In this document: positions 28,782 to 61,349 of the stretch, piece by piece
How the letters are laid out: the number at the start of each line of letters is the position of its first letter
How positions within the stretch are numbered: the first letter of the stretch is position 1
Source of the DNA: Planctomycetaceae bacterium UBA2671
GTDB lineage: Bacteria; Planctomycetota; Planctomycetia; Planctomycetales; Planctomycetaceae
Direction: 5' to 3'
Length of the DNA: 64,000 nt
Assembly: GCA_002359185.1 (NCBI GenBank)
Contig: DEML01000116.1
Coordinates: 20,362-84,361 of the forward strand
Notes under the pieces: model-generated
Seen by the model: only the letters and a program-made list of their open reading frames with translations
Told to the model about the DNA's origin: nothing
The model's database searches: none
Program-made: the position numbers and the translations under genes

Positions 28782-28997
28782 TCTGAAGGTCTCTGCGCAG
28801 ATCTCTATCACATTCATCGAATTTTGAGTCATGAGCAGTATAGACAATACGGTAACTTGAACAGGTTTGCATGCATACGATTTCAATGACTGTCACAAGT
28901 CATAAGTTGCATGAATCTTCGTCCGTTTAACCAGTTTGCCTGATCGTCATGATTGTTAAATACCTGACTAAATTGCACTCGAACTCAGTTCAGTTGC

Positions 28998-32608: not shown

Positions 32609-32863
32609 CCAGGGCAACAGTATTCGATTCTGGTAGTGAGAATTCACGTCATTCATAACCAGTTCGATGTCTTTACAATACAAAGCAGGGCATGGTTGTA
32701 GAAAAAGTAACTTTGTGAGAAGGAGAACTTGCTGTCACGTTGTCATGTGTTCAGAAAGTAGATCAAAGCATAAATGAGCCGACCTGAGAATGCCAATTAA
32801 AAGCCTGGTAATTCTCTACGATTCAGACGGAATTCGTATTAGTGAGAATACCGGATTTGGAAA

Positions 32864-41903: not shown

Positions 41904-44222
41904 ATGATTTACTACAAAAGTCTCATATACCGATTTCACGATCGATTCTTCACTGATGAGTTTCGGCTCACAGGATGGGACTTGAGTTCTGCATATTTTC
42001 AGGCGAAATATTCCTTACTGATAAAAGGGCTCTCGTCGCTTCTGTTTGTCATAGCAGCGAGCTTGATGGCCTCAACCGCTTGCGGGCAGGCTCTTCAGCG
42101 ATTTGAAGCTTCCGGGCAGTATGAACGTGATGAAAAGCATTCAGGCTCGACATTGAAGGTTGAGACAGAGAATCGTTTTCGGCTCACGCCACTGAATCAG
42201 ATTGCTGTTCAAGAATTCGATAAAACTGCAAAATCGCCAGCCATGCCCAGGTTAGAAGTCCCTCCGTTATCAAAGAGCGATGACGATTTAAAGCTGGATG
42301 TCCTACAGCCTGGGACCAGGATGTTTGTCGATTCCCCTTCCCCGGTAAAAACAGCTCGATTGTTCTCTGAAGACTCCCCCTTAATTCTGCCTGAGCCCGT
42401 CGTTGAAACTGCTCCCACCCTCAATCCCCCGATCTTAAGACGTCCTCTCGCAGAATTTGGGCCTCCACAAATTGAGTTGGAGGAGGAAGAGGTCAATCTG
42501 TTTGAGGACTCTCTTCTGACATATCCTCACGAAGCTCCACTCGGGTACACCGGGCCTTCTGGAATTCTGCCCAAGGATGCCCAAACAACGAGTCACTTTG
42601 TCCCGGTGGAAGATCGCTGGCGTTCCGGATTTCCGGACTGGGATCGATACGACCAGGGGCAGCCGTCGGGAGTTGATTATCCTTATGAGCATGGACGCTG
42701 GTATGACCCGTACAATCAAAATTATCTCAAAGGTGATTTTCCGATCATCGGTCAGCATCTCTTCATGAATATTACAGCAGAGTATGAAACCCTCCAGGAA
42801 TTTCGTCAGTTACCTGTCGCGACTTCTCCTTTTGAAAGTACGATCGATCCATTTTCGGAGCCATTCTTTGGGGATCCCAATCAGTACTTCTCGTCCAATT
42901 TATTCCTGATGTCCTTTGAATTGTTTCACGGCAATGCGGCTTTCAAGCCGATTGACTGGCAATTCAAAATGACTACTGCATTCAATATCAATTACCTCGA
43001 TACGAATGAACTCGCGGTCGTGAATCCTGATATTCGAGAGGGAACAACCAGGCTTGATGATTATTTTGCACTTCAGGAATATTTCTTTGAGTGGAAGATG
43101 GCGGACTTGAGTCCGCATTACGATTTCGTCTCCGCACGAGTTGGATCGCAGGAATTCGTCAGCGATTTTAAGGGATTTATCTTCGATGATGTCAATCGTG
43201 GTGCCCGGGTTTTTGGAACACGGCTGGCTAACCGCGATCAGTTTAACATCGTTTTGTTCGATCAGGTTGAAAAAGACACCAATAGCCTGTTGAATACTTT
43301 CAATGATCGAAAACAAAACACTCTCATCATGAATTACTACCGGCAGGATTTCATTTCCCCCGGTTACACGGCTCAAGCCAGTTTTCATTACAATATTGAC
43401 CGACCGGACTTTCTGTTCGATAACAACAATTTTCTGGCCCGCCCCGATCCTGTCGGTATTTTTGAGCCGCATCAGGTGGAAGCCTACTATTTGGGCTTAT
43501 CTGGCCAGGGGCATATCGAAAAGCTGAACATCTCGAATGCGTTTTACTATGTGTTCGGACATGACAGTATGAATCCGATTGCGGGAAAAGCTCAGGATAT
43601 CAGCGCCTGCATGGCTGCTCTCGAACTCTCCTACGACCGCGACTGGGCTCGATTCCGCACATCCTTCTTTTATGCTTCGGGAGACAGCAATCCCAACGAT
43701 ACAACCGCAACAGGCTTCGATACGATTCTCGATGCCCCCAACTTTGCCGGAGGAGAATTCAGCTATTGGCAACGCCAGCAGCTGCAACTATTCGGCGTGA
43801 GTCTCGTGCAGCGGGAAAGCCTTGTTCCCGACTTGAGAACCAGCAAATTTCAGGGACAATCGAACTTCGTTAATCCTGGGTTATTGCTGTTTAATGTCGG
43901 TATGGATTTTGATATCACGCCGAAGTTGAAGATGATCACCAACGCGAACTATATCATGTTCGACGATACCGAAGTTCTCGAAACCTACACCTTTCAGGAT
44001 GATATCGCCACCGCAATTGGGACCGACCTGAGCATTGGTTTTGAATACCGCCCTTTACTGAGCGATAACATCGTGTTCGAAGCAGGGATTGCAACCCTGA
44101 TACCCGATGAAGGGCTCAAAGATCTGTACGGCAAGTACGATCCGTTCACGATTGCCCAGGTCAATAATCCAGAACTCGATCCCCTGTTCTCCATATTTGT
44201 GCAGGGTGCGTTCATCTATTAA
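41904..44222 (+). CDS. Putative large outer-membrane beta-barrel protein (772 aa)
   Basis: Signal-like LLIKGLSSLLFVIAASLMASTACGQA. The C-terminal two thirds show amphipathic beta-strand dyads (FRTSFFYASGD, ITNANYIMFDD, LSIGFEYRPLL, IVFEAGIATLIP). The terminus is aromatic (...FVQGAFIY). I could not recognise a named family. Confidence 0.55.
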   Translation: MIYYKSLIYRFHDRFFTDEFRLTGWDLSSAYFQAKYSLLIKGLSSLLFVIAASLMASTACGQALQRFEASGQYERDEKHSGSTLKVETENRFRLTPLNQIAVQEFDKTAKSPAMPRLEVPPLSKSDDDLKLDVLQPGTRMFVDSPSPVKTARLFSEDSPLILPEPVVETAPTLNPPILRRPLAEFGPPQIELEEEEVNLFEDSLLTYPHEAPLGYTGPSGILPKDAQTTSHFVPVEDRWRSGFPDWDRYDQGQPSGVDYPYEHGRWYDPYNQNYLKGDFPIIGQHLFMNITAEYETLQEFRQLPVATSPFESTIDPFSEPFFGDPNQYFSSNLFLMSFELFHGNAAFKPIDWQFKMTTAFNINYLDTNELAVVNPDIREGTTRLDDYFALQEYFFEWKMADLSPHYDFVSARVGSQEFVSDFKGFIFDDVNRGARVFGTRLANRDQFNIVLFDQVEKDTNSLLNTFNDRKQNTLIMNYYRQDFISPGYTAQASFHYNIDRPDFLFDNNNFLARPDPVGIFEPHQVEAYYLGLSGQGHIEKLNISNAFYYVFGHDSMNPIAGKAQDISACMAALELSYDRDWARFRTSFFYASGDSNPNDTTATGFDTILDAPNFAGGEFSYWQRQQLQLFGVSLVQRESLVPDLRTSKFQGQSNFVNPGLLLFNVGMDFDITPKLKMITNANYIMFDDTEVLETYTFQDDIATAIGTDLSIGFEYRPLLSDNIVFEAGIATLIPDEGLKDLYGKYDPFTIAQVNNPELDPLFSIFVQGAFIY

Positions 44223-44302
44223 TTTCCAGGAAATGTATTCGTATGAATGGATTTGCTTCTCTCATTAACTCCGCTGAATTTCTCAAGCTGTCATTATGAT
44301 CC

Positions 44303-46072
44303 ATGACGATCAGTAATCCCTTTCATCACATCGAATTCAAAGACCGGAATGACTTCGAGTTCTCCAGGATCGTCTGGTGCTGCGCGTGTTGTGTGATTCT
44401 TTGCTGCGGAATCGGCTGTGCCAGATTGCCCAAAACGTCAACCACATCTATAGCCTTGGCTAACCCAGATTCAACCGCAGTGGAAGAGTATCCGGCCCTG
44501 ATCGTAAGTGCCGAGATGGATGGCGAAAAACATCGCGAGGCGAATCTGACTCAGCTCAACGTTAGCGAATCGCAACTTCTTGAGGAAAGCACTAACGAAG
44601 AAGTCATCGAATTTGCTGCTTATTCGACCAATTCCGATTTACAAACTTCGGAAGCCTTAACGATTTCCATGGCAATGCAGGTGATGCTTGAGAATAATCC
44701 ACTGGTCAGGCAGGCACAACTTTCTCAGGAAATGCAGCAGACGCTCATCGATCAATCTCTGGCTGAGTTCGATACTACGCTTTCCTCGAACCTCGATATG
44801 AGACAGGTCAACCAACAGGCCAGTTCCGCAATCGATGCTCTGGGGACGGGACAAAATACAATTTCGACGACCAGCCTGGGAACTTCGAATGGACCTGATC
44901 TACTGGCTTTTGGGAAAAAATGGGAAACCGGAACACAAACCCGACTGGCGTATGGCAGCAATTATAATAACAACAATCCTTCCGGGTCCTTTCTTCTGGT
45001 GAACCCGGCTTACTCCTCAAATTTATCTCTGAGTGTCAGCCAACCGCTCTGGCAGGGAAGAAATCAAAATGTCAATGAGGCTCCTATTGCGATCGCCAAA
45101 TTAAATCAGGCGCGGTCAAAGTATGAAACTCGGGAAACGGTCACCGATCTGATTGTCGAACTTCATGCAGCCTACTGGTCGGTCTATCAACTCCAGCAGG
45201 AAGTCACACTCATTGAACAGGAATTATCGGATGCCGAACATTTGCATCACGAAGAAGAAGTACGTCTCAAACTCGGTGAAGGGAGTATGGTGCGTCTGAC
45301 ACGCTCGCTCGATTATGTTCAACAACTAAAAATCGAACTGGCCCAAGTTGAGCAACGAGCGTTCGAGGCTGAACAGAGACTCTTCCTGACCATGGGGATT
45401 GATCAGTCACTGTCTACTATACCTCGTCATCTGATCGCCGAGCCCGTATCCAATCTTATCGCAATAGACGCGGTCAGCAGTCGCGAGCAGGCACTTCAGA
45501 ATCGAAATGAACTCAAAATTGCCCGCCAAAAACTCAAGACCGCGGAACTCCAGAGACTGCAGGCTGAAGACCTGACAAAACCATCAATCAACGTTGTGGG
45601 TCGCGTTGGAGTTTCCGGACTCGATTCGAATGCCTTCGGAGCGATCCAGAATGCCAGTTCCGGAAACTATCACAACTGGATGATGGGCCTGAACTATGAA
45701 CGTAAACTTGGCAAACGAGGCGAACAGGCCCTGCTGAAACGAGCGGAGTTGCAGTTTCAGTCTGCGATGATTGAACTGCGAAAAGCTGAGAACATTATCA
45801 ACTACGATGTCGACCAGAGCCTGGAACAGGTGCGGAAAAGCTATGACATCTATCAGGCCCAACTGACTCGCTCTAACCTCCTCATAGAGCAACTCGATAT
45901 CTACAACAAGCTGTACCACAAAGGGCAAATCACCATTGAACAACTGGTGGAATCGCGTGGTAATCTCCTCTCCGTTCAACGCGACGAATTGCTGGCGCTG
46001 GTCAATTACAATCTATCGATTGTTGTCTATCACCGCAGCCTCGGAAATTTAACGCATCGTTATTCCCTTTGA
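44303..46072 (+). CDS. TolC-family outer-membrane efflux protein
   Basis: 589-aa ORF with a Cys-rich lipoprotein-like signal (VILCCGIGC). It has two OEP-type helical repeats (e.g. LSLSVSQPLWQGRN, the coiled-coil LIEQELSDAEHLHHEEEVRLKLGEGS, and a second repeat NVVGRVGVSG...). Confidence 0.8.
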   Translation: MTISNPFHHIEFKDRNDFEFSRIVWCCACCVILCCGIGCARLPKTSTTSIALANPDSTAVEEYPALIVSAEMDGEKHREANLTQLNVSESQLLEESTNEEVIEFAAYSTNSDLQTSEALTISMAMQVMLENNPLVRQAQLSQEMQQTLIDQSLAEFDTTLSSNLDMRQVNQQASSAIDALGTGQNTISTTSLGTSNGPDLLAFGKKWETGTQTRLAYGSNYNNNNPSGSFLLVNPAYSSNLSLSVSQPLWQGRNQNVNEAPIAIAKLNQARSKYETRETVTDLIVELHAAYWSVYQLQQEVTLIEQELSDAEHLHHEEEVRLKLGEGSMVRLTRSLDYVQQLKIELAQVEQRAFEAEQRLFLTMGIDQSLSTIPRHLIAEPVSNLIAIDAVSSREQALQNRNELKIARQKLKTAELQRLQAEDLTKPSINVVGRVGVSGLDSNAFGAIQNASSGNYHNWMMGLNYERKLGKRGEQALLKRAELQFQSAMIELRKAENIINYDVDQSLEQVRKSYDIYQAQLTRSNLLIEQLDIYNKLYHKGQITIEQLVESRGNLLSVQRDELLALVNYNLSIVVYHRSLGNLTHRYSL

Positions 46073-46392
46073 TTTGAATTTCTACTGCTATCTGTCCTCA
46101 GGCTGCTTCTGCGAAATGGAGTGCTAAATGTCAATTCAAACCGGTCACGTGCATCTGGGTAAATATTAGTACAATTTGATCATCACAATTTCTAAAGAAA
46201 TTGAAGACAGATCACGTCGGATACTGTACACTTCCAGTCATACTCGCCACTATTTCATAAATGCTCCATTCGCTGAGCAGTCACAGGGATAGGAGCTGAG
46301 ACGCAACAATCGTGATCGATGAGTGACTTCCAATGTCGCTCTAATATTTCTCAACAATTTTATTTGCACAATCATAATATTAAGGTGTCGAA

Positions 46393-47388
46393 TTGCTTAT
46401 TACGCGATCACATTGGATTGGCCATCGAGTGTGGGCGCTGGTGACTTTGCTGGTCGGCATCATCAGCATTGTGATCTTTGCGTTTCGAGTCGCAAATTCT
46501 GAAAGCTGGCCTACGGGGAGCGATCCCTACTGCTTCCTGCTGGGAGTTGGAGCGTTCCTGATTATCGTCTTCGAAAGTCTGCTCTGGCTTCGCAAGAAAT
46601 TACGGCTCGTCCGGATTCTTGGGAAGCCGAAGACCTGGATGAAAGCTCATATCTGGCTCGGATTATTGTGTGTTCCCTTCGCGGTTATGCACAGTGGCCT
46701 AAGGTTTGGAGGACCACTAACGACTGCTCTGATGGTCATTTTTGGCCTGGTCATTCTCAGTGGAGTGAGTGGATTAATTCTCCAGCAGTTCATTCCCAAA
46801 ATGATGTTTCAGATGATTCCTCACGAAACAATTCATTCACAAATCCCCCGCGTTGTCTGTCATTTACGGAATGATGCCGAAGGCTTGATTCGACAGTTGA
46901 ATCGTGATTTTGCCTTTGAGAAAATGCAGGGTGATCTGCTCCATCTGGAACGGGTTGAACACGAAGCCCTTCGAAGTCAGTTTCTGATAGAAGGAGACGA
47001 CAAGCGAAATCGGGGAGGCGCGAGCAATATCAAGTCGATTTCTGCTCCTACGATTTTTCGCCAAAACATTCCGAAAGATCATCCTCTTGTCAAATTTGCG
47101 AAAGAGTATCTCGATGACTTTATGAGCCTGAAAAAGTATGGCTCTTCGCCATTGCGGGATTCTGTTCGCATGCAGCGAGAGTTTCGAAAAGTACGCACCG
47201 AGTTGGAAGAATCGCAGGTGGCAACACTGGATCAACTGGAAAAAATTTGCAGCGAACGAAACGAACTGCATCAGCAATACCGTCTGCATCTCCTGCTCCA
47301 TTTCTGGTTGTATGTGCATTACCCGTTGACGATTCTCCTGTTGGGATTGTTGGGAGTGCATATCTATTTTGGATTGTATTATTGGTAG
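46393..47388 (+). CDS. Integral membrane protein with two intramembrane His pairs (candidate di-heme b-type electron carrier)
   Basis: 331-aa ORF with a TTG start. It has about 5 TM helices and a roughly 160-aa soluble coiled-coil insert between TM4 and TM5. By my residue count, His86/His100 lie in TM3 (KAHIWLGLLCVPFAVMHSG) and His309/His323 in the last helix (VHYPLTILLLGLLGVHIY). Confidence 0.6.
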   Translation: MLITRSHWIGHRVWALVTLLVGIISIVIFAFRVANSESWPTGSDPYCFLLGVGAFLIIVFESLLWLRKKLRLVRILGKPKTWMKAHIWLGLLCVPFAVMHSGLRFGGPLTTALMVIFGLVILSGVSGLILQQFIPKMMFQMIPHETIHSQIPRVVCHLRNDAEGLIRQLNRDFAFEKMQGDLLHLERVEHEALRSQFLIEGDDKRNRGGASNIKSISAPTIFRQNIPKDHPLVKFAKEYLDDFMSLKKYGSSPLRDSVRMQREFRKVRTELEESQVATLDQLEKICSERNELHQQYRLHLLLHFWLYVHYPLTILLLGLLGVHIYFGLYYW

Positions 47389-47468
47389 GATATACAAATC
47401 TGTTACGGTGAAAGTGTCTCACACTTGATCTCGAACTGTTCACTACCCTTGCGTGAAACGACTGATTG

Positions 47469-49280
47469 ATGGCCTTAAATAAGAATCTAATGACGGACCA
47501 ATCTGGAAAGACGGCTGGCGCACGCGTCAATCGAATTCCTCCGGATTACTATCGTCGGTCCGATTCGATTCGAAAATGGCGTCATTTTCTGCTGGCGATT
47601 TCCGTCTTGCTTGTAGGAGCCATCATTCTATTTTCAGTCGACTGGAATGGAGTCCGGTCAAACGGGCTCCAGGGGTCAACTCTTGTCAAATGGGCGACCA
47701 ATCATGGAGAGATTAGTCAGGCTCATGCGGCTTGGGAACATCAGTGCGAAGTCTGCCATGAACCCTTCAATCCAATTCGAGATCAACATGTCGGCAGTTT
47801 CTTCAATTCCATTGCCGGAACCCAGTTCAAAACCGAAGCACGTTGCACGTCCTGCCATCAGGAATCGCTCGGGCATGTCTGTCAACATTCGATAATCGAT
47901 CAACAGGGCTGTGCGAGTTGTCATCACGAACATCGAGGACGCAATCACAATATTACTGAAGTCCGAAATATAAGCTGCACGAAGTGTCACAAGGATCTTG
48001 AGAAAGCGATGGCAGGAGTTGAGCCGAAGACGGCCTGCAAAAAAACGTCTCATGCGAATGGCTGGCAATCGATTGAACATTTCTCGACGCAGTCTCATCC
48101 CCAATTTGTATCATTGGAAAATGGTGATCCCGGAAATATCAAATTCAACCATCAATTACACCTTGCTTATGGACAAGGCCTGGGAGAAAAGGGGGGAGAA
48201 ATCCTCGCTGAAATTGAGCCGGACTTCTCTGAAGAGCGGCTTAAACAACTTGCAGACAGCAAGCAGCTCAAATGCAGTGACTGTCATGAACGGGCAGGAC
48301 TGGACTCCGCAGGAGATGCGGTGACACAACGAATGGATTTCCGTCCTATTGACTATGAACGTCATTGTCGATCTTGTCACCCGATGCGTTCTGCTGTCAC
48401 ACTCGTCGAACAAAGCTACGAAATTTCCAACGCGGCTCACGATCTTTACAAAAACGATCGCGACCAGTTGATTCAGGAGAGAATTCCTCACGGATTAACA
48501 CTCGACCAGTTGGAATTTCAAATACGACAACGACTGGCCGGCGTGGCTGTCTACGAACAAGTCAAGTTATCACAGCGAGCAGATCATTCCCCTGTCATAA
48601 TGCCGGGGCAAAGTGAAACCCAGCCACTACCAAATGGACTTCTGCCGAATACAGTTCGAGACGCAGATCAAACAGGGTCTCAAACAAAGAAAAATGATTC
48701 CCTGGAAAGCCTGCGATACTTGAGTCAAAAAGCAGTCGAGCAATTGACGGGATTAGGCGCGAATTGCACGAAGTGTCACTATTACACGGCGACTCTCGAA
48801 GATGGTCAGAAAAAGCAGGTCTTCTCATTCGAGGAAGCGAGGAATCTAAGCAAACTCGATTCTCAACCCGTGAATGGACAAATCGAAATCAGTCCTGCGA
48901 ACATTCCTCAACTCTGGCTCAATAAATCAAAGTTTCATCACCATGCTCACCGCATGGTTTCCTGTGAGAGCTGCCATCCAAAAGCCGAGTTGAAAAAAAA
49001 CCAGGCGACTTATGCGGAACTTGTCGACACACCTGCGACATTCGACAATCTCGAAGTCATGATTCCAGGCATGGAGGTGTGTATAAAATGTCATTCAAAC
49101 TCACCAGAACAGCAAAAGGAATCAGGGAATCATGCCATAGCCGGAGCCAGCGATGCGTGTGTCCTTTGCCATTCGTTTCACCAGGCAGATCAATACAATC
49201 AAGATGATAAATCGGAGTTTTCCAGTCATTTCCGAACGATCGAAGAATTCTTGAACTATCAAGGACCTTCCGAGGAATGA
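47469..49280 (+). CDS. Membrane-anchored decaheme c-type cytochrome
   Basis: ORF 47466..49280 starts at TTG; the ATG is at 47469. A single N-terminal TM helix (WRHFLLAISVLLVGAIILFSV) is followed by 10 CxxCH motifs: CEVCH, CTSCH, CASCH, CTKCH, CSDCH, CRSCH, CTKCH, CESCH, CIKCH, CVLCH. Confidence 0.85.
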   Translation: MALNKNLMTDQSGKTAGARVNRIPPDYYRRSDSIRKWRHFLLAISVLLVGAIILFSVDWNGVRSNGLQGSTLVKWATNHGEISQAHAAWEHQCEVCHEPFNPIRDQHVGSFFNSIAGTQFKTEARCTSCHQESLGHVCQHSIIDQQGCASCHHEHRGRNHNITEVRNISCTKCHKDLEKAMAGVEPKTACKKTSHANGWQSIEHFSTQSHPQFVSLENGDPGNIKFNHQLHLAYGQGLGEKGGEILAEIEPDFSEERLKQLADSKQLKCSDCHERAGLDSAGDAVTQRMDFRPIDYERHCRSCHPMRSAVTLVEQSYEISNAAHDLYKNDRDQLIQERIPHGLTLDQLEFQIRQRLAGVAVYEQVKLSQRADHSPVIMPGQSETQPLPNGLLPNTVRDADQTGSQTKKNDSLESLRYLSQKAVEQLTGLGANCTKCHYYTATLEDGQKKQVFSFEEARNLSKLDSQPVNGQIEISPANIPQLWLNKSKFHHHAHRMVSCESCHPKAELKKNQATYAELVDTPATFDNLEVMIPGMEVCIKCHSNSPEQQKESGNHAIAGASDACVLCHSFHQADQYNQDDKSEFSSHFRTIEEFLNYQGPSEE

Positions 49281-49348
49281 TGTTTAAACTGTCACTTTAA
49301 GTAAGTCCCGATTCAATTTCCGAACCAGCCGCGACAGGCAGTGTATTT

Positions 49349-51085
49349 ATGAGTCTTGTGCAGATATTAATCAAACGACAAAAAGAAAACGGCGGTTTTC
49401 TTTCTGCAGAAGTTCTTCAGGAAATCTCCGATCGAACATCAACTCCGTTATATCGTCTTCAGGAGTTGGTTAGTTTCTACAACAGTTTTCGCCTCGCTCC
49501 TCCGCCGAAGGTTGAAGTGCAGGTTTGTCGTGATTTTTCCTGTCACATGCATCAAAGTCAGGAGTTGATTCAAGATCTCAAGAACGAATTTGCAACAGAA
49601 ATTGAACAGGGGCAGGTTTCCATTTCTGGAAAATCCTGCATGGGCTATTGCGATGGCCCTGTTGCAGTCAGCCTCAATCATCATATTGTCCCCGACAGCA
49701 ATTTGAGACAGTGCGTGACCTCCATTCGCTCAATCCTGAAATCGGGAATCACACATGGTAAGTCTGTTGATCATGAAATACCTGATGAGTGGGAAATCGA
49801 CTGTTATCAGAAGCAGACGAAATATGAGTTACTCAACAATTTTTTGCAGGCTGCCGATCGGAATGCTTTCGGGGAATCGGTATTGAAGGCACTCGAAGAT
49901 TCCAGCCTGGTTGGAAAGGGAGGTCCCGGAGCCAGGACAGCCAAGAAATGGCGGACCGTTAAGAAGTATGCAGAGCAGGAAAATCGAGCGGTCCGATATG
50001 TCGTTTGCAATGCCGATGAAAGTGAGCCGGGAACGTTTAAGGATCGGGAACTTCTGCTCAGAACTCCCCATCTGGTTCTCGAAGGCATCATCACTGCGGC
50101 TCTCATCATTGGTGCAGAGCGTGCTTACATTTACATCAGACATGAATATGAATCACAAATCGAGGCTTTTCAGAGGTGCATTGATGATGCAAAGGCTAGA
50201 GGCTTGTGCGGTCGAAATCTCCTAAAGACCGGATTGAATTGTGAAGTGGAAGTCTTTGTCAGTCCTGGCAATTACATTTGCGGCGAACAGACGGCAATGA
50301 TTGAGGCGATGGAAGATAAACGGGCTCAGCCCCGCCAGCGACCGCCCGATTTGGAAATTCAGGGTTACAGAAATTTTCCGACGCTCGTCAACAACGTCGA
50401 AACCTTTGCCTGGGTCCCTGCTATTTTCAATAATGGTCCAGATTGGTATCGAAAACTAGGCGTGAACGACTGCGAAGGAAAGCGATTTGTTTCCCTCAGT
50501 GGAGATATCAATCGCCCTGGCGTGTATGAGGTTCCCTTAGGTTCGACTGTAGGAGATTTGCTCGAACTGGTGGGTGGCATGCGAGACGGACAGGAATTAC
50601 AGGCCTTTGGAGTCTCCGGCCCATCCGGAGGTTTCTTACCAAGAAAGTTTTCACGTGATCAGCTTCCTGACGATTTTGTCAAAAAAATGATCCCAGAGGG
50701 AGAGCATGAATTCGATCTATTGAATCTACCACTGGATAATAACTTCTTTCGATTTCAGTTGCGTGGACGTTTCAACCTGGGAGCCGCCCATCTGTTTATT
50801 GGAGAGCAGACCGATCTGGTCAGTCTGGTTAAATCCTGCACGGAATTTTATCGCAATGAATCGTGTGGCAAGTGTGTTCCTTGTCGGCTGGGCTCTGAGA
50901 AACTCGTCCAGATTGCATCCAGACCATTGAATGAAGGGAAACTGCAGATCCCGGATTACTTCCCGGATTTAATCGAATTAATGCAGGAATCGTCCATCTG
51001 TGGATTAGGTCAAGTCGCTTTCAATCCCCTGTTGTCGTTGAAAGAATTTTTCCCGGAAACTTGGGAAGTCGCCAAAAGTCGGTAG
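49349..51085 (+). CDS. NuoE-NuoF fusion (NADH dehydrogenase flavoprotein module: 2Fe-2S + FMN + NADH + 4Fe-4S)
   Basis: 578-aa ORF. NuoE-like cysteines: CRDFSCHMH...GKSCMGYCDGP. NuoF FMN site: GKGGPGARTAKKW. NADH site: VVCNADESEPGTFKDRELL. N3 cluster: ESCGKCVPCRLGSEK...SSICGLGQ. Confidence 0.9.
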   Translation: MSLVQILIKRQKENGGFLSAEVLQEISDRTSTPLYRLQELVSFYNSFRLAPPPKVEVQVCRDFSCHMHQSQELIQDLKNEFATEIEQGQVSISGKSCMGYCDGPVAVSLNHHIVPDSNLRQCVTSIRSILKSGITHGKSVDHEIPDEWEIDCYQKQTKYELLNNFLQAADRNAFGESVLKALEDSSLVGKGGPGARTAKKWRTVKKYAEQENRAVRYVVCNADESEPGTFKDRELLLRTPHLVLEGIITAALIIGAERAYIYIRHEYESQIEAFQRCIDDAKARGLCGRNLLKTGLNCEVEVFVSPGNYICGEQTAMIEAMEDKRAQPRQRPPDLEIQGYRNFPTLVNNVETFAWVPAIFNNGPDWYRKLGVNDCEGKRFVSLSGDINRPGVYEVPLGSTVGDLLELVGGMRDGQELQAFGVSGPSGGFLPRKFSRDQLPDDFVKKMIPEGEHEFDLLNLPLDNNFFRFQLRGRFNLGAAHLFIGEQTDLVSLVKSCTEFYRNESCGKCVPCRLGSEKLVQIASRPLNEGKLQIPDYFPDLIELMQESSICGLGQVAFNPLLSLKEFFPETWEVAKSR

Positions 51086-51129
51086 TACAATTTGTACATA
51101 AAACACATCAATAATAAAGCAGACTATTC

Positions 51130-53730
51130 ATGGCTGATCTCTCGGAAAAGCAGATCTCTTCATTCGCCAGACGCGAAAATGAGCTTCAGGAATATACGGT
51201 TGAAGGGCAAATTGTCACTCTCTCGCCAGCCGATGCCGAGAAGCAGAACGATCTGCTCAATTTAATCATTGATGGGAATCCCTTTCAATTTCCACGAACA
51301 GTAATGGCTCTCGATGCTTACGGAAGCCCCGTTTACGACAAAAATGGGGACGTGACTTATCGTTATTCCACTATTTATGATGCCGTCGATAAGTATTACC
51401 GAACCCAGCCCGGCGATGAAAATCCGATCCCGATTCTATGCCATCAGCAACATCTTAAACCAGTGGCGATGTGCCGCGTTTGTATGGTGGCTGTGCAGGG
51501 GCCGGAGATGGAACGATCAGGAGAGCCCAGGCGGGATGAAACTGGCAGTGTGATCTATAGTTCCCGTTCGACCCTTGTCCCCTCCTGCCATCGAGCACTC
51601 GACGACTACCTTAATATTCATACGCCCAGAACTCCGCATGATAAATTCCGGAGTCAAATTCGCCGTTTGGGAGGGCTGGCAGTCGAATTATTAATGTCCG
51701 ATCAAGCCAATCCGCAACGCCATCTCCAGGTTGAAGATAAGCAGTTGCCGGAGCTCTATAAACTGGCCAGGCAAGTGGATGTCCCTGCCACGCCCAGGTT
51801 TCCAAGAAGCAGTTCCCATGCAACTAGAACGGTGGATACCTCCAGTTCGATGATCAAAGTCGATCATGGAGCCTGCATCATGTGTGATCGCTGCATCCGG
51901 GGTTGCACCGACGTCAAACATAACAATGTCATTGGTCGAACCGGCTCGGGATATCAAACGCGGATCAGCTTTGACCTCGACCAGCCGATGGGAGATTCCT
52001 CCTGTGTCGAATGTGGGGAATGTGCAATTTCATGCCCGACCGATGCATTAACCATCGACGAGCAGAACATTCCCAATATCGAAATAGGTGCGAATTCCAA
52101 CGAGTTAACCATCGAGGAAATCCAAGCTCATCCCTTACTCAAAACCGTCCCTCCCAAATATCTTTCGTTTATCAAGAATTCATTTTCCCGGAAAACTTAT
52201 CGACGAGGAGACGTTATTTTTCGAGAAGGTGAAATCGGACAAACGGCATTTTTAATGGAAAGTGGTCGATTCCAGATCACCGCACTGTCCCGTCAGAAAA
52301 CATTGAAAAAACACGAAGGCTCAGTCTTCAGTCTGATGACCCGCTTCCGCTTTGATATGGAAGAGGGTGATTCTACGCAGAGTCATTCTCAAAAAACTTA
52401 TAACACCTTCACTTACGGAGGAACTTTCAGTGCGCCGCCGAAAGATGTCCTGAAAGTTTTACCGGATCATGCGTTTGTCAGTGTTGTGACAAAAGACGAT
52501 CATCTCTTTGGCGAGGCCAGTTGTCTCAATAATTATCCAAGAGCCTTCACGGTCGAAGCGATGGATGATGAATGTTCGGTGATTGAAATTCGTCGTAACA
52601 TCGTACTCATGCTGATGCGAGATCGTTCCTCCCGTGAGTTGCTGGAAAAGCTGTATCGGGAACGAGCTCTGGGTGTCGATCTGAAGAAGATCGAATACTT
52701 CTCATCACTCGATGAAGCGGGTCAGGAAATGCGTCGCATCGAGCGACTGCTTAAGGATAAAGTCGAATTGACGAAGGTCCGTCCCGGTCAAACAATTACT
52801 CGCCAGGGTATCGAATCGAATTATCTGAATCTGGTGCGAATTGGATTCGTACGAATCGAGAAGAAAACTGCCAGCGGGGAAACTTATGTCGAAAGTTATC
52901 TCGGACCGGGAAATCACTTTGGCGATCTCGAAATGCTGGTCGATATCGATTCCTGTTACGACACCTTAAACGACATGCAGCGCAGCACAGTCGATCAATA
53001 TGGTCGGGGTTTGAATCAGGCTTCCTATGTCGCAATGGATAACGTTGAGCTGTTGAGAATCCCTAAAGAGGTCTTTAAGGAAATCTATGCTCAATACCCT
53101 ACGATTGCTCAAGCAATGCGGAAGCTTGCAAAGGAAAACCTCGATAAAATTCGTGTGATGCAGCCGACGGATAGTGGCGCGATGAAGAATTTTCTGGATC
53201 AGGGACTCGCCAATGCCCAGAACCTGCTCGTAATCGATCTACTCAAATGCACCCGTTGCGATGAGTGCACCAAGGCTTGTTCTGATGCTCACCTGGGAAC
53301 GACCCGCTTAATCCGCGAAGGGCTTCGATTCGACAAATATCTCGTTACCAGTTCCTGTCGATCCTGCCGCGATCCTTACTGCATGCTCGGATGTCCGGTC
53401 GATGCGATTCATCGCGGCCCCGATTTCAACATGAAAATTGAATCGTGGTGCATTGGCTGCGGCTTGTGTGAAGAGCATTGCCCCTACGGAAACATCAATA
53501 TGCAGCCTTTGCCAGAGAAGAAAACCTGGTGGGGAGGACAGTCGAAAGGACCGATCGAAGCCGGTGCCGATGGACGGGCCGTCATTAAAGTGCAAGCCAC
53601 TATCTGTGACTTATGCACGGAAACATCCAGTAAACAACCTAGCTGCGTTTACGCCTGCCCACACGACGCGGCTCACCGTATGTCAGGCGAAAAACTGCTC
53701 AACCTGGTCGACCTGGAAAGCCGAAACTGA
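51130..53730 (+). CDS. Fusion protein: NuoG-N-terminal-like Fe-S domains + two cyclic-nucleotide-binding domains + DmsB/HybA-like 4x[4Fe-4S] ferredoxin domain
   Basis: 866-aa ORF with no signal peptide. 2Fe-2S: LCH...CRVCMV...SCH. Next clusters: HGACIMCDRCIRGC and CVECGECAISCP. cNMP domains: FREGEIGQTAFLMESGRFQI and GPGNHFGDLEML. C-terminal clusters: CTRCDECTKACS, CRSCRDPYCMLGCP, CIGCGLCEEHCP and CDLC...CVYACP. Confidence 0.85.
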   Translation: MADLSEKQISSFARRENELQEYTVEGQIVTLSPADAEKQNDLLNLIIDGNPFQFPRTVMALDAYGSPVYDKNGDVTYRYSTIYDAVDKYYRTQPGDENPIPILCHQQHLKPVAMCRVCMVAVQGPEMERSGEPRRDETGSVIYSSRSTLVPSCHRALDDYLNIHTPRTPHDKFRSQIRRLGGLAVELLMSDQANPQRHLQVEDKQLPELYKLARQVDVPATPRFPRSSSHATRTVDTSSSMIKVDHGACIMCDRCIRGCTDVKHNNVIGRTGSGYQTRISFDLDQPMGDSSCVECGECAISCPTDALTIDEQNIPNIEIGANSNELTIEEIQAHPLLKTVPPKYLSFIKNSFSRKTYRRGDVIFREGEIGQTAFLMESGRFQITALSRQKTLKKHEGSVFSLMTRFRFDMEEGDSTQSHSQKTYNTFTYGGTFSAPPKDVLKVLPDHAFVSVVTKDDHLFGEASCLNNYPRAFTVEAMDDECSVIEIRRNIVLMLMRDRSSRELLEKLYRERALGVDLKKIEYFSSLDEAGQEMRRIERLLKDKVELTKVRPGQTITRQGIESNYLNLVRIGFVRIEKKTASGETYVESYLGPGNHFGDLEMLVDIDSCYDTLNDMQRSTVDQYGRGLNQASYVAMDNVELLRIPKEVFKEIYAQYPTIAQAMRKLAKENLDKIRVMQPTDSGAMKNFLDQGLANAQNLLVIDLLKCTRCDECTKACSDAHLGTTRLIREGLRFDKYLVTSSCRSCRDPYCMLGCPVDAIHRGPDFNMKIESWCIGCGLCEEHCPYGNINMQPLPEKKTWWGGQSKGPIEAGADGRAVIKVQATICDLCTETSSKQPSCVYACPHDAAHRMSGEKLLNLVDLESRN

Positions 53731-53792
53731 GTCATCTCAGGTGGATAAATCTTTAGAAGTGAAGCATCGCTCTCAGCCGAACACCTTTAAGA

Positions 53793-56700
53793 TTATTCCC
53801 TGAATTGTCGAGCCGATCCGTAATAGGATTCAATCTGTTGATGCAGTAGATCTTCTCGCAGATTAGGGAACTCGATTCGATAATCCGGCGAGAACGTTTC
53901 GACCCGGAATGGCTCCTGGGAAACTGGATTGATATACAACTTCCTTTGTTGCTGATAATTAAACGGCCGGGCACCAACTCGCCCGAAGACGGCAATTTGA
54001 TTCCCCGATTCATCGACCGCTCGATCCCGGTCAATTCCTTCGGCGATGCACAGAGCCTCGCCTTCATGAAGATGATACGTTGCAATCAATTTCGGTTCTG
54101 GCCGCACACTGAATCCATCATTCCCCTCAACGTGTGGGGATGTCAGTTGCAGCACATGCATTCCATTTTTGCCATCGGCTAGATAAGCAAACTCACTGTT
54201 GTAGGTGATTCCCAGTTTCACATCGTGCAAATCGCAAATTTCACCTTCCGCATTGAAGATTTGATCAACAAGAGGTTTTTCCGGATTCGTCACATCGACA
54301 ATAATCAGTCCCTGTTTACCTGCAGCCAGATAAGCATAGTTTCTGGCGACATACACATTATGTAAGTCTTCAAATTCGAGTGCGGTTACGGGAATCGGGC
54401 AGGAGGGATCGGTAATATCAATGACCTTCAACCCCTCTTCATCGCAGACAAAACCGTAACGGAATTCCACTTCCATCTGATGAGGATGATTCAGAAATTC
54501 CTTGCCGAGGACGTTCACGATACACGGTTTCTTAGGATCGGTGACATCTACAACCACGAGCCCCTTCTCACAGCAGACATAGGCATAATTACCGACAATC
54601 TTGACGGACTGGGCACCATCAAGTGCTCCACCCGGGTTGAAGGCAAGTTCCTTTTCCAGGAAGTTATTGAGAGGATCGCCATCTAGTAATGTTCCTGCTC
54701 CGATGAAGACGAGCCCCTCGTAAAGATCCGTCGCGAACAGATATCCGTAGTGAGCAGGAACTTTCTGCTCATCGTTTTCGGGATAATGTTTGCGTGTCGG
54801 ATCGGGAGCAATTGTAGCCGGGGCATAGACGGACGTTGCATATTTTGTACGGACGAAAAACTTCTGACCAATCGGTGAAACGGGAGCAGTCGTCACACGT
54901 TCCGAAAATCCTTTATGGTCAATAAAGGCAATATCGAACACTCGCACACCCGCTTTTCCGCAGGCGGCATAGAGATATTCCCCACGTTTCTGCAATGTCA
55001 AAACGGTTGGCTGTTTGAACGGGCGAAAGACCTCACTGATATCCCGTCCCGGATGTTCGTGAGCATGTTCAAGAATATGATCGTTCTCTTCATGCTCTTC
55101 ATAATGCTCACGGAATGCCAGTTCATGCAGATGGCTGCCAATGACCGCTTGAGGAGCATCTCGTTCGGTCACTGGAACGGCATAAAATCCATGATCTCCA
55201 CAACCAACCCAGCAGAAACGTCCGATGAAGTTCAGGTAGTTGGTTCCCTGCATGAGCAGTTGGGACATGATGGCGTTGTTATCGTTTGCCTGAGAAAGAT
55301 GGCAATCGGTGCACATCTTCGTTTCCCCCCGACCACGCACCGTATGAGGAACATTGGTGCTGAAAGCAATCCCGCTGAGACCTTCCGCGGAAATTGTCTG
55401 CTGCTGTGTATAAATCGATTCGCGATTGTTGTTATAAGAGGTGACATGAATCGCACAGGAGGAGCGGGAAGGGTTGATCTTATTCCCAGTCACATTTCCA
55501 TCGTGTGCCAGCATAAAGACATCATCACGCAACGTCTGGAAGTCATACGATACGTAATTTTTAGTGACATCTCCTTCATTATGGAGATCCGGCATTTTTC
55601 GGTTGGCCTCTTGAGGGAGATGGCAACCATAGCAACTCGGATTCCAGCTGCTGTGGCACGAACTGCAACTCATTGTTTGATTGCAGTGTGCCAGTTTCAG
55701 AGGATCCTGCGGCAAGTCACCCCATTCAAATTTCCCCAGCTCATCGAAGCGAATCGTTTTCGCCAGAGCCGCATTAGCATTGTATTTAGGATGTTTGGGA
55801 TCAATCGTGTCCGAAACCTGGGTCACTTCCCAGCTGAGTCCCTTTTCGACCATCGAGTTCTGGTACAGTTTGTCGCCTCGAAGTTCGAAACGCTGTTTTC
55901 CGAATGGTGTGGTCATCGCCGAGAGTTCCCGACCGTTAGGCTGCGGAGCTTCTCTTTCCTTGGCGGCTGGCCCGGAAGTTCGCATTTGCCAGCGATTATT
56001 AATCAACTTGAAGGCTTTATCGTTAACCGTGCCATGGCAATCGATACATTGAATTTCAATTGCTGCTCGAACCTCACCGTACAATTTGGTATCGCCATGA
56101 ACGTCCTGCACAAAATGGCAATCCACACAATGCATCCCCTTTTCCAGATGCACATCGAGCATATGAACGGGAACTCCTTTTTGCAGATCCAATAACTGCT
56201 GCTCCGCTTTCTCAACTTCAGCCAACGAGAGTGTCGGCTTCTTGCGTTCAAGTTCCTTCACATACAGCGGAATAGCCATCGCCTGTTGAAGCTTTTCATT
56301 TTCGACATGTTCGAGCCGATTGCCGAATTTATCGAGCAGATTTCCCTGACGATCCTTTTTATAGACGGCACGAAATACCCAGCCGTGGCCGTGGAAGTCG
56401 GCAAATTGTGTTTTTTCCAGATGTTTATTCAACGAGGTCAACTCGGTCAGGAATTCCGGATTTGACCAAAGCCCTTTCACACTGGCAGAATTCGGATCGG
56501 CCATTTCCGCCTGAACAATCTGCTCCGCGGTCGGATCGTGCTGTTCCCGCGGATACATATTCTCGCCATCGGTTTCCATGTCCCACCACATGTATCCCAG
56601 ATAGCTGTTCATCACAGTAGTTCCCGGGTGAATATGACAGACTATGCACTGGCTCGTAGGAATTGAACGTGTGAAGTTGTGACTGACCGGATGACCGGAT

Positions 56701-57938
56701 TGAAACTTGGGAATCATGGGATCAACTGACTCAATCAAATCATCAGGTTTTTCAGCTGCATAACCTCGATTGCCATACTTCGCATAAGGCCCCGAATGAA
56801 TTGGTGAACGATCGTTGGCGTAAATCATATGACAAGATGTGCAACCGCTCGAACGGTAATCGCCGGGATGATCGTTGGTCCCCAAAAAATTCAGTGTCGG
56901 ATCGAACAGGCGTGTTTTCTGCAATCCGATGAAGACAGGATCAGTTCGATTCAGCGTCCCCAGCCCTCGATTACTGATTCGTTCCCGCGGTCGTCCAGGT
57001 TCTTCGAGAACTTCGGGAATGCCCGGCTCTGTACGGAAACGTCCCCCCCGTTCAAAAATTCTCAGAATATTCCCAGGTTGCGAAGCTTGATATCGCGGCA
57101 AAGGATCCAAGTAAGGCAGTACACCTTTTCTGGCCGTCTCTTCTGCAGTTGGTGGTGGAACCGTTTGCAGACGCTGAGGCGCCCCATGCATCGAATAGCT
57201 CTCGCCATACATCGGCCATTTCTTCGGAACGGAACCATTATTATACAGCGCTGCTCCCCACAGCATGCAGCCATGCGTCATCATCCCTTTTTTCACCTGA
57301 AGGGTTTCGTTGGGATGACAACCAACAGTTCCGCAACTCAAATGAGCAACTCGCAAATCTCCTGGATTCACAAACTGGATAAACTCAGGAGATTCGTGAT
57401 TCAACAACGTATAACTGCGAACCGGATTTGCAGAGGAATTCCAGATGGTCGGATAACGGGAAGGGACATGGGCCTGCTCGATCGTCGTTGCACAGGGGTC
57501 ACCACCATGGCAATCCGTGCATCCAAGTTGAATCGCCAAAGGCTTCCCCGGTTGCTTGTGGGGATCGTGAGCATTTTTATGACAAACAACACACCCATGG
57601 CTCTTCGCGTCGGCTTCCTCACGAGATTGCCGCATTAACTGGGCATTCGCAATGGCTGGTGGAGTAGGGTAGGGATGCTGTGGATCACCAGGATGAGTTG
57701 GGCCAGGGTGAGAATTATCCAGATCGCCTAAGCGTATTTTGGCAGGAGGGACATCATTCGAGCCCTCGATCAAGTAGCTCCCGGCAGGAATTTTTTCATC
57801 GGCATACAAATGATCTTCACCGGCGGAAAACTCGAACTGAGAAAAATTATAGACGAGATTTCCCAACACCCAGAGTGTCAGTAATGAAACCCCGAATAAC
57901 TTTGGTTTGAAGTGAGAAGGTGTGGGCTTCCTCATCAT
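53793..57938 (-). CDS. Secreted decaheme c-type cytochrome fused to a C-terminal LVIVD-repeat beta-propeller
   Basis: 1381-aa ORF with a signal anchor (LFGVSLLTLWVLGNLV). Heme motifs: CVVCH, CTDCH, CGTVGCH (CX4CH), CTSCH, CIVCH, CVDCH, CIDCH, CSSCH, CYGCH, CTDCH. LVIVD repeats: GVRVFDIAF, GLVVVDVTDPKKP, GLKVIDITDPSCP, GLIIVDVTNPEKP, GMHVLQLTSP. Confidence 0.85.
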   Translation of the reverse strand: MMRKPTPSHFKPKLFGVSLLTLWVLGNLVYNFSQFEFSAGEDHLYADEKIPAGSYLIEGSNDVPPAKIRLGDLDNSHPGPTHPGDPQHPYPTPPAIANAQLMRQSREEADAKSHGCVVCHKNAHDPHKQPGKPLAIQLGCTDCHGGDPCATTIEQAHVPSRYPTIWNSSANPVRSYTLLNHESPEFIQFVNPGDLRVAHLSCGTVGCHPNETLQVKKGMMTHGCMLWGAALYNNGSVPKKWPMYGESYSMHGAPQRLQTVPPPTAEETARKGVLPYLDPLPRYQASQPGNILRIFERGGRFRTEPGIPEVLEEPGRPRERISNRGLGTLNRTDPVFIGLQKTRLFDPTLNFLGTNDHPGDYRSSGCTSCHMIYANDRSPIHSGPYAKYGNRGYAAEKPDDLIESVDPMIPKFQSGHPVSHNFTRSIPTSQCIVCHIHPGTTVMNSYLGYMWWDMETDGENMYPREQHDPTAEQIVQAEMADPNSASVKGLWSNPEFLTELTSLNKHLEKTQFADFHGHGWVFRAVYKKDRQGNLLDKFGNRLEHVENEKLQQAMAIPLYVKELERKKPTLSLAEVEKAEQQLLDLQKGVPVHMLDVHLEKGMHCVDCHFVQDVHGDTKLYGEVRAAIEIQCIDCHGTVNDKAFKLINNRWQMRTSGPAAKEREAPQPNGRELSAMTTPFGKQRFELRGDKLYQNSMVEKGLSWEVTQVSDTIDPKHPKYNANAALAKTIRFDELGKFEWGDLPQDPLKLAHCNQTMSCSSCHSSWNPSCYGCHLPQEANRKMPDLHNEGDVTKNYVSYDFQTLRDDVFMLAHDGNVTGNKINPSRSSCAIHVTSYNNNRESIYTQQQTISAEGLSGIAFSTNVPHTVRGRGETKMCTDCHLSQANDNNAIMSQLLMQGTNYLNFIGRFCWVGCGDHGFYAVPVTERDAPQAVIGSHLHELAFREHYEEHEENDHILEHAHEHPGRDISEVFRPFKQPTVLTLQKRGEYLYAACGKAGVRVFDIAFIDHKGFSERVTTAPVSPIGQKFFVRTKYATSVYAPATIAPDPTRKHYPENDEQKVPAHYGYLFATDLYEGLVFIGAGTLLDGDPLNNFLEKELAFNPGGALDGAQSVKIVGNYAYVCCEKGLVVVDVTDPKKPCIVNVLGKEFLNHPHQMEVEFRYGFVCDEEGLKVIDITDPSCPIPVTALEFEDLHNVYVARNYAYLAAGKQGLIIVDVTNPEKPLVDQIFNAEGEICDLHDVKLGITYNSEFAYLADGKNGMHVLQLTSPHVEGNDGFSVRPEPKLIATYHLHEGEALCIAEGIDRDRAVDESGNQIAVFGRVGARPFNYQQQRKLYINPVSQEPFRVETFSPDYRIEFPNLREDLLHQQIESYYGSARQFRE

Positions 57939-61328: not shown

Positions 61329-61349
61329 TGATCTGACGAAATTCAAAAT

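Follow-up and report, generated by a model that had tools for sequence, protein, structure and literature searches.

A 64,000-nucleotide stretch of DNA from Planctomycetaceae bacterium UBA2671 (contig DEML01000116.1, positions 20,362 to 84,361 of the forward strand; hereafter the window) carries, between about 27.2 and 57.9 kb, a redox gene neighbourhood that consists of two modules conserved across planctomycetes. Module A contains an outer-membrane beta-barrel protein (g1) and a secreted decahaem protein (g7), and module B a membrane protein with two histidine pairs (g3), a membrane-anchored decahaem cytochrome (g4), a NuoE-NuoF fusion (g5) and a cytoplasmic iron-sulphur (Fe-S) protein (g6). 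The reading that we favour, with modest confidence, is that modules B and A together provide a quinone-independent route by which electrons from NADH are exported outward to a multihaem system of the periplasm or outer envelope. An earlier reading of the window, made from the sequence only, had treated g1 to g6 as a single row of six co-oriented genes; synteny resolves this row into two conserved modules and an insertion, and it is not one ancestral operon. The seven genes are as follows.

41904..44222, + strand: g1, predicted AlgE-like outer-membrane beta-barrel of about 18 strands, residues ~286-772 (AlphaFold2 (AF2) strands, Foldseek, homologues)
44303..46072, + strand: g2, TolC-family protein (Pfam OEP, E 2e-28)
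46393..47388, + strand: g3, membrane protein of a new family with five predicted transmembrane (TM) segments (alignment, AF2, sub-threshold Pfam)
47466..49280, + strand: g4, N-terminally anchored periplasmic decahaem cytochrome c (motif count, TM prediction)
49349..51085, + strand: g5, NuoE-NuoF fusion with 2Fe-2S, flavin mononucleotide (FMN)/NADH site and N3-type 4Fe-4S (Pfam, PDB, motifs)
51130..53730, + strand: g6, cytoplasmic Fe-S protein, similar to HoxU, FdsA and the N-terminus of NuoG, with cyclic nucleoside monophosphate (cNMP)-binding and four-cluster ferredoxin regions (Pfam, NCBIfam, PDB)
53793..57938, - strand: g7, secreted decahaem protein with a C-terminal LVIVD propeller (Pfam, haem motifs, orthologues)

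Gene content and locus samples

All seven open reading frames (ORFs) were confirmed at these coordinates and on these strands, and the domain scans agree with the gene content reported earlier. The gaps between the six co-oriented genes are 80, 320, 77, 68 and 44 nt, as previously given except for the third, which had been put at 80 nt; g6 and g7 are convergent and separated by 62 nt. The earlier statement that quinone-site and proton-pumping subunits are missing also holds, as Pfam detected no NuoH/L/M/N, NrfD or cytochrome b/bc1 among the larger ORFs of the window (the scan left aside a few ORFs of 150-300 aa and everything shorter). Neither Rfam nor tRNA scanning gave a match in the window, and promoter and terminator scans returned fewer sites than in shuffled sequence. 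The 320-nt gap between g2 and g3 does contain a terminator-like and promoter-like pair, which is suggestive only.

Conservation was assessed in two samples, namely 80 loci around g1 homologues, taken from contigs of one genome per species, and 80 loci around g3 homologues, taken from metagenomes. All window proteins were mapped onto both samples (~160 loci), with neighbour counts limited to loci having sufficient flanking sequence, and unbiased clustering of ORFs was also run on the barrel loci and on the g3 loci.

Two conserved modules and their linkage

In module A, g7 lies directly downstream of the barrel gene and on the same strand in 47 of the 66 loci with enough downstream sequence, and a large M10/HbpS-like gene is found divergently upstream of the barrel in 42 of 56 loci. 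This arrangement spans Planctomycetaceae, Pirellulaceae and Gemmataceae at ~60% identity, with Stratiformator (L001) a clean example. The barrel is paired with the decahaem-LVIVD gene in most of the planctomycete genomes examined, so that its association with a cytochrome, visible earlier in a single genome, is not peculiar to that genome. In the window the arrangement is modified, with g2 and module B (46393-53730) inserted between the barrel gene and an inverted g7. The window itself stems from a marine Rubinisphaera, and R. italica (locus L002) has the same gene order as the window, at 81-95% amino-acid identity.

The gene order of module B is kept almost without exception. Directly downstream of g3 is g4 (44/46 loci), and where flanks reach 6.5 kb or more (13 g3 loci), g5 occurs in 12 and g6 in 11. 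This constancy speaks against the possibility, raised in the sequence-only reading, that the NuoE-NuoF protein partners a hydrogenase or formate dehydrogenase encoded elsewhere. A c554-like cytochrome is encoded divergently upstream of g3 in 29 of 46 loci, and three paralogues of it are present in tandem in the window (27228-32683). When ORFs from the g3 loci were clustered, neither an additional conserved partner nor a quinone-site subunit emerged. The proposal that these genes form a functionally linked set was examined by this synteny survey across planctomycetes, and since gene order is conserved across the phylum in both modules, functional linkage is supported.

The two modules also adjoin one another, in six of the barrel-side loci (L006, L048, L050, L059, L074 and L075) and in loci L095, L124, L131, L143, L144, L149-151, L156 and L159 on the g3 side. 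In L124, barrel and g7 genes are divergent from a g3-g4-cytochrome-g5-g6-cytochrome series across a shared 258-bp intergenic region, and the genes are tightly packed or overlapping. Adjacency within 10 kb in a genome of ~7 Mb would be expected by chance in ~0.3% of cases, compared with roughly 10-30% observed. The link between modules A and B is real, but is not obligatory. HbpS-like proteins, typical of module A, also accompany variant g3 operons (L084, L139, L144, L158, L161).

These variant operons (L084, nt 10001-19324; L139, L144, L153, L156, L158 and L161) have the order g5-g6-g3, followed by a different 10-haem protein and after that an HbpS-like protein. In L144 and L156 a barrel gene is divergent from the variant operon. 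Locus L084 also carries an AlgX/GDSL gene and is adjoined by type VI secretion system genes.

The membrane protein g3

The earlier description of a di-haem-b-like membrane protein fits well, as g3 looks like a two-haem transmembrane protein. It has two histidine pairs, His86/His100 and His309/His323, each with H-x13-H spacing and located in TM3 and TM5, and in an alignment of 28 homologues (30-46% identity) all four histidines are among the only 17 invariant residues. The AF2 model (predicted local distance difference test score, pLDDT, 88) has five TM helices and a cytoplasmic helical insert of ~160 residues (142-300), with the histidine pairs lying within predicted helices 79-100 and 273-330. 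By the positive-inside rule the N-terminus and the loop 67-85 are cytoplasmic, a topology in which His86 and His309 would lie close to the cytoplasm and His100 and His323 close to the periplasm. Ferric-reductase domains also carry their histidine pairs in TM3 and TM5. The predicted geometry is that of two-haem transmembrane cytochromes b, with two bis-His b haems.

Sub-threshold Pfam matches recur among the 28 homologues, to DUF4405 in 21 of them (best E 0.0012), to Ni_hydr_CYTB in 8 and to Ferric_reduct in 5 (best E 1.4e-4), and the R. italica orthologue is labelled 'Ferric reductase like transmembrane component' in UniRef. From its sequence, g3 would belong to the two-haem cytochrome b superfamily only as a remote member, if at all. 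The family is large, with 728 clusters (at 50% identity) at E<=1e-30 and 2444 at E<=1e-10. It includes long variants of 550-864 aa, in which no informative fused domains were found.

The remainder of module B

The cytochrome g4 has a single TM segment (37-63) and 10 CxxCH motifs, a number that is exactly kept in 38 of 39 orthologues. Shuffled sequences of g4 and g7 contain a mean of 0.04 CxxCH motifs, with a maximum of 2. The g4 protein scores above the Pfam threshold for MtrC/MtrF domain II/IV (37.4 vs 30 bits), and reaches 41.1 bits against TIGR03508 (decahem_SO, the DmsE/MtrA family), where the cut-off is 192.2, so that it is not a member of that family.

The g5 protein matches 2Fe-2S_thioredx, Complex1_51K, SLBB and NADH_4Fe-4S above the Pfam cut-offs, and its best PDB alignments are to Aquifex NuoF, HydB and FdsB (E ~4e-75). 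Scores against the NCBIfam equivalogues fall short of the cut-offs for both NuoF (335.9 vs 558.65) and NuoE (58.9 vs 142.4), indicating a paralogue rather than a subunit of complex I. Its FMN, NADH and Fe-S motifs had all been described as intact. This is correct for the latter two, since 22 orthologues keep the CNADESEPGTFKDR NADH motif along with the 2Fe-2S and N3 cysteines, but the FMN glycine loop (residues 187-201) is atypical, reading GKGGPGARTAKKW in the window copy and one other sequence, with GGPGART in the window copy where most orthologues have the canonical GMGGAGFPT.

Similarity of g6 to NuoG, HoxU and FdsA is confined to residues ~100-312 (TIGR01973, 33.8 bits vs 470), and the best PDB alignment of its N-terminus is to the N-terminal Fe-S region of FdsA (E 4e-17). 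No catalytic domain follows this region, and the molybdopterin-like C-terminal domain of NuoG is absent. Instead, g6 goes on with three stretches of the cNMP-binding type and, at its C-terminus, a four-cluster ferredoxin region. Seven four-Cys groups make up its 28 Fe-S cysteines, every one of them invariant across 27 orthologues. In the first cNMP domain there is a canonical phosphate-binding cassette, FGE..PR[AS]ATV, at residues ~460-475, which is kept in the same number of orthologues, and this suggests that electron transfer through g6 is under cyclic-nucleotide control. A cysteine within the cassette, C465, is also invariant.

The barrel g1

The barrel protein is 772 aa long, ends in FVQGAFIY and has a single hydrophobic segment (36-64); it reaches the threshold of no family in Pfam or NCBIfam. 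Its homologues number at least 2797 and typically share ~60% identity with it over residues ~205-772, with 190 invariant columns in the alignment; they often possess N-terminal HEAT repeats (5 of 14 aligned). The AF2 model, built from 14 sequences, is poor overall (pLDDT 45) and shows ~17 strands in the region 286-734, for which pLDDT is 65-80, and only its strand pattern and the consistent ranking of AlgE were used. In a Foldseek search of the PDB the top 13 matches of this low-confidence model were all AlgE (best E 6e-7, TM-score ~0.3), and MtrB was absent among the 50 matches listed of 670. The Pfam family Alginate_exp matches below threshold (E 0.028; 13.7 bits, cut-off 25.2), the UniRef label of the R. 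italica orthologue is 'Alginate export domain', and a PDB sequence search with the g1 profile gave nothing significant. Since g1 has neither a CxxCH nor a variant haem motif, it is not a fused porin-cytochrome of the Cyc2 type.

This evidence, which is of moderate weight, argues for an AlgE-like barrel of ~18 strands and not for an MtrB-like one. The barrel of MtrB has 26 strands. A barrel of the smaller kind makes an MtrCAB-style sheath around a decahaem protein unlikely, and the sheath for a haem wire, a possibility that had been raised from the sequence, is not borne out by the ~17 modelled strands and the 13 leading AlgE matches. An MtrCAB-type conduit, in which the barrel sheathes a decahaem wire leading to g7 at the surface and on to insoluble Fe(III)/Mn(IV) or electrodes, appears improbable to us, even though barrel and g7 genes are adjacent across the phylum, g4 exceeds the MtrC/MtrF domain II/IV threshold and decahaem counts are strictly conserved. 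Set against these points are the AlgE-like fold, the score of g4, far below the DmsE/MtrA cut-off, and the properties of g7, which lacks a lipobox and MtrC domains and is, from general knowledge, far more conserved than surface cytochromes usually are.

The similarity to AlgE also admits a different explanation, that g1 is an AlgE/AlgK-like porin for the export of polymers or solutes, with g7 and the M10/HbpS-like protein processing the exported material and the haems being catalytic. The HEAT repeats of g1 homologues would then mimic the periplasmic solenoid of exopolysaccharide secretins, and an AlgX/GDSL gene does occur in one related locus (L084). However, ORF clustering of the barrel loci found no glycosyltransferase, synthase or other polysaccharide gene as a conserved neighbour, and the conserved partners are all redox or haem proteins, which renders this explanation quite improbable.

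Two segments of g1 outside the strands, 205-285 (non-barrel) and 593-658 (a 66-residue loop), rank among the most conserved parts of the protein (example motifs HFVPVEDRWR and GFDTILD..FAGGEFSYWQRQ), and AF2 failed to model either. They may form a plug, a constriction or a docking site for g7.

The decahaem protein g7 and other members of module A

The ten haem motifs and the LVIVD repeats previously ascribed to g7 are present (Pfam, motif count), but only nine of the motifs are CxxCH, the other being CxxxxCH. All 40 orthologues have 10 haem motifs and a Sec-type signal peptide without a lipobox, and identity per alignment column averages 61%, evenly spread over the mature protein, large haem-free stretches included. 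There is no MtrC-family Pfam match and no lipobox Cys after the signal peptide, and the surface location earlier assigned to this protein finds no evidence in a sequence that has a Sec signal peptide and no lipobox. Surface cytochromes are usually far less conserved. The level of conservation suggests an enzyme, or a hub with multiple partners, rather than a fast-evolving surface outlet. The core partner of the barrel is g7, which is probably the terminal oxidoreductase. A PDB profile search found no solved relative, only a marginal match to the haem motifs of NrfA (E 0.6). A relationship to hydrazine synthase or HAO was considered and is unsupported.

The following genes, all on the opposite strand and upstream of the barrel, also belong to the neighbourhood.

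38023..41259, - strand: large M10 (HEAGHVSGLED, snapalysin-like) and HbpS-like protein, part of the module A core (Pfam Peptidase_M10, HbpS-like)
37267..37689, - strand: small secreted protein, 140 aa, with signal peptide (ORF clustering of barrel loci)
27228..28886, - strand: cytA, c554-like multihaem cytochrome (Pfam Cytochrome_C554, E 5e-11)
28998..30989, - strand: cytB, c554-like paralogue, 663 aa, 5 CxxCH (Pfam, motif count)
30998..32683, - strand: cytC, c554-like paralogue, 561 aa, 4 CxxCH and 1 variant motif (Pfam, motif count)

A gene of the 140-aa secreted protein family is directly downstream of the M10/HbpS-like gene in 17 planctomycete barrel loci. The protein has a conserved motif, ...CYYVGGG...GTFGVDYVPWYSR..., and matches no known family. 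It and the M10/HbpS-like protein are putatively accessory to module A. CytA (552 aa) has an N-terminal hydrophobic segment, 4 CxxCH and 1 variant motif, and is a candidate for the periplasmic link between modules A and B. Homologues of cytB and cytC adjoin g7 or g3 in many loci.

TolC and neighbouring genes

The TolC-family protein g2 had been counted as a member of the conduit. Among the surveyed loci, however, R. italica (L002) alone shares a g2-like TolC with the window; none of the 24 remaining barrel loci whose flanks reach 9 kb or more has one, and a role of g2 as an outer-membrane exit is rejected on synteny. The gene is a Rubinisphaera-specific insertion and is probably not part of the redox system. 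It more likely works with neighbouring HlyD-type adaptors, three of which are encoded in the window (34803-37025, 58201-60210 and 60420-61328). Beyond g7, the region 58201-63379 has two HlyD/RND-type periplasmic adaptors and a P-type ATPase, which are candidate partners of g2. Two further genes were recognised by domain scans.

32864-34783, - strand: truncated SecA2-like ATPase, 639 aa
34803-37025, - strand: fusion of a daptide-type/M50-like intramembrane metalloprotease and an HlyD adaptor

This pair is an occasional neighbour only; it adjoins the M10/HbpS-like gene also in L002 and in the distant loci L008 and L012, and may constitute a dedicated export or maturation system.

The remaining parts of the window hold a chemotaxis cluster (1120-10024: histidine kinase, CheR, CheB, a PAS-rich methyl-accepting chemotaxis protein and a CheA-CheW-receiver hybrid) that appears unrelated. 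Between 12580 and 25333 are genes for an HD-domain protein, a PAS-GGDEF-EAL protein, a 1057-aa DUF4838 protein and a VTT/DedA-domain protein, followed by a pyridine-nucleotide-disulphide oxidoreductase.

Proposed route of electrons

Gene content, synteny, and the cofactor motifs with their conservation were established in this study; we infer that g3 binds haem and that the subunits form a physical complex, and likewise which way electrons flow, where g7 is located and what the substrate is. The conserved cofactors of g5, g6, g3 and g4 make plausible an unbroken path from NADH through FMN, Fe-S clusters and two b haems to ten c haems. In the proposed scheme, module B (g3-g6) would be a four-subunit complex that moves electrons across the cytoplasmic membrane without quinone. 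NADH would be oxidised at the FMN of g5, and electrons would pass along up to seven Fe-S clusters of g6, where the cNMP domains probably gate or regulate them. They would cross the membrane by the two bis-His b haems of g3, from the His86/His309 side to the His100/His323 side, and enter the ten c haems of the membrane-anchored g4. The c554-like tetra- or pentahaem cytochromes (27.2-32.7 kb) would then relay them to module A, with g7, placed at the outer membrane or beneath it, as the terminal oxidoreductase, and the barrel g1 serving as a docking site for g7 and/or as a channel for a small external oxidant or product.

Outward flow is favoured because both the -320 mV couple and the membrane potential would assist it; for periplasmic c haems to reduce NAD+ against this potential, the donor would have to lie far below -320 mV. 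The reverse can be imagined, with g7 oxidising an external or periplasmic low-potential donor and electrons passing through the c554-like cytochromes, g4 and g3 to NAD+, as in HAO-c554-cM552 or Tmc/Hmc. The layout of an enzyme, a c554-like shuttle and an anchored multihaem protein does, from general knowledge, resemble the nitrifier chain, and modules of the NuoEF/HoxFU type, to which the PDB relatives of g5 belong, are reversible in principle. However, such a path would run against the membrane potential to NAD+/NADH (-320 mV) and would demand a donor of very low potential, and the hosts would seem to be mostly aerobic heterotrophs; we regard inward flow as very improbable.

Several observations weigh against outward export through the two modules. 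Haem b binding by g3 follows from motif logic only, and this protein could have a quinone site. Its Pfam hits all lie below the gathering thresholds, with no Pfam or NCBIfam family reached, and neither profile search nor Foldseek found a PDB relative (best E 0.2, to sensor domains). The FMN loop of g5 in the window is atypical. The model of the g1 barrel is poor (pLDDT 45), and an 18-strand AlgE-like pore would be unable to pass a cytochrome. With ~60% identity over 1300 residues, g7 resembles an enzyme more than an outlet for electrons at the surface. Among 24 barrel loci with flanks of at least 9 kb, only 2 contain g3, g5 or g6, the other module is present in 4 of 13 g3 loci with long flanks, and the modules are apart in many genomes (e.g. 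L001, L083), so that they may also work independently.

Such separation is what would be expected of two independent systems that happen to be clustered, with module B a self-contained NADH:cytochrome c oxidoreductase that supplies the ordinary cytochrome pool of the periplasm and provides an overflow towards terminal oxidases or reductases, and module A an unrelated envelope enzyme with its pore. Each module does indeed stand alone in many loci. On the other hand, adjacency recurs in different orders and lineages, including the shared intergenic region of L124, c554-like cytochromes accompany both modules, and HbpS-like proteins are found with g3 variants as well. We consider full independence of the two systems unlikely, and retain export of NADH electrons through modules B and A as the preferred reading.

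A bolder form of this reading, offered tentatively and one that we would sooner doubt than believe, is that module B represents an unrecognised class of input enzyme for respiration or extracellular electron transfer, a quinone-independent, cyclic-nucleotide-gated NADH:multihaem-cytochrome-c oxidoreductase that, with the help of the membrane potential, would supply electrons of very low potential to the decahaem-propeller enzyme conserved across planctomycetes, at an AlgE-like outer-membrane pore. If so, the supposedly strictly aerobic Planctomycetia would gain a universal extracytoplasmic reductive capability, for example for metal or iron reduction or for detoxification of oxidants, and a new family of two-haem proteins, with at least 700 sequence clusters, would span the cytoplasmic membrane. 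The Planctomycetia are abundant on marine particles, in lakes and in soils. Both modules are widespread and strongly conserved among them, and probably matter for the ecology of the group.

To our knowledge, all of the Gram-negative routes that export respiratory electrons start at the quinone pool (CymA, ImcH, CbcL), and in NAD(P)H-fed two-haem exporters (NOX, FRE, MsrQ) the recipients are small acceptors instead of multihaem wires. A complex of a complex-I-type flavoprotein, a two-haem membrane protein and a decahaem cytochrome would provide a new coupling of cytoplasmic redox balance to periplasmic or extracellular chemistry, and an Fe-S wire controlled through conserved cNMP domains of its own would be unusual.

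Comparison with known systems

Full-text searches of the literature did not find a published description of this gene cluster. A 2026 preprint on electron transfer in peat deals with Acidobacteriota and Verrucomicrobiota only, and a paper on the origin of anammox is unrelated. The statement in the sequence-only reading that no characterised system has this wiring was nevertheless too strong, as NOX/FRE/MsrQ-Fre and Tmc/Hmc each share half of the design.

With NOX/FRE/STEAP and MsrQ(-Fre) the g3 system would share the sequence from NAD(P)H to flavin, two bis-His b haems (in TM3 and TM5) and an extracytoplasmic acceptor, along with the N-in topology of TM1-5 and the H-x13-H spacing of ferric-reductase-domain proteins. 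Unlike these, g3 lacks TM6, has the ~160-residue cytoplasmic helical insert and shows no Pfam match at threshold and no PDB fold match. The electron donors differ, being a complex-I-type NuoE/F with a 7-cluster Fe-S protein in module B and a fused FNR-like domain in NOX/FRE, as do the acceptors, a decahaem c in module B compared with a flavinylated protein, MsrP, O2 or Fe(III) in NOX/FRE/MsrQ. Gene clusters that combine MsrQ-like two-haem proteins with NuoF-like ones have been noted bioinformatically by Meheust et al. (bioRxiv 10.1101/2021.01.07.425746), with cytosolic NAD(P)H as the proposed electron source.

The g5 protein aligns over both its NuoE and NuoF parts (E ~1e-74 to 1e-67) with FdsB and HoxF, which belong to the diaphorase modules of NAD-dependent formate dehydrogenase and NAD-reducing hydrogenase. 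In contrast to FdsA and HoxFU, g6 has no molybdopterin or hydrogenase domain, none being encoded nearby, and has cNMP and four-cluster ferredoxin regions instead; the conserved partners of g5 and g6 are g3 and g4, unlike those of the diaphorases.

MtrCAB and the Geobacter Pcc systems are similar in that a barrel gene adjoins a multihaem cytochrome gene and in having periplasmic cytochromes of decahaem scale. They differ from the window, where the barrel is AlgE-like with ~18 predicted strands, members of the MtrCAB/Pcc families and a lipoprotein cytochrome are lacking, and the input would be NADH rather than quinol via CymA, ImcH or CbcL. AlgE is the best structural match to g1, and the HEAT repeats of g1 homologues are analogous to a solenoid partner of the AlgK type. 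The sequence match is sub-threshold, however, conserved polysaccharide genes are lacking, and g1 has a unique N-terminal segment rich in invariant residues and the conserved 66-residue loop, so that from sequence and model it would be at best a remote member of the AlgE porins.

In Nitrosomonas, the HAO-cytochrome c554-cM552 chain consists of a multihaem enzyme, a c554-type shuttle and an anchored multihaem protein, and ends in quinone. The window has the same layout of enzyme, shuttle and anchored protein, and cytA matches Cytochrome_C554; the nitrifier chain runs in the direction opposite to that proposed here, and membership by sequence is lacking (23 bits vs a cut-off of 400).

The Tmc, Hmc and Dsr complexes of sulfate reducers contain a cytoplasmic Fe-S protein, a membrane cytochrome b and a periplasmic multihaem c, and CbcL of Geobacter combines a b-type domain with a multihaem c domain. 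The cytoplasmic subunit of Tmc/Hmc/Dsr is HdrD-like, the b subunits belong to the NarI/HybB families, and flow is inward or linked to quinol. Module B would have the same Fe-S/b/multihaem-c layout, differing in a cytoplasmic part that is NuoEF/HoxU-like where theirs is HdrD-like. Judged by analogy, the design is a combination of two known halves, that of NAD(P)H, flavin and two b haems and that of Fe-S protein, b haem and multihaem cytochrome c.

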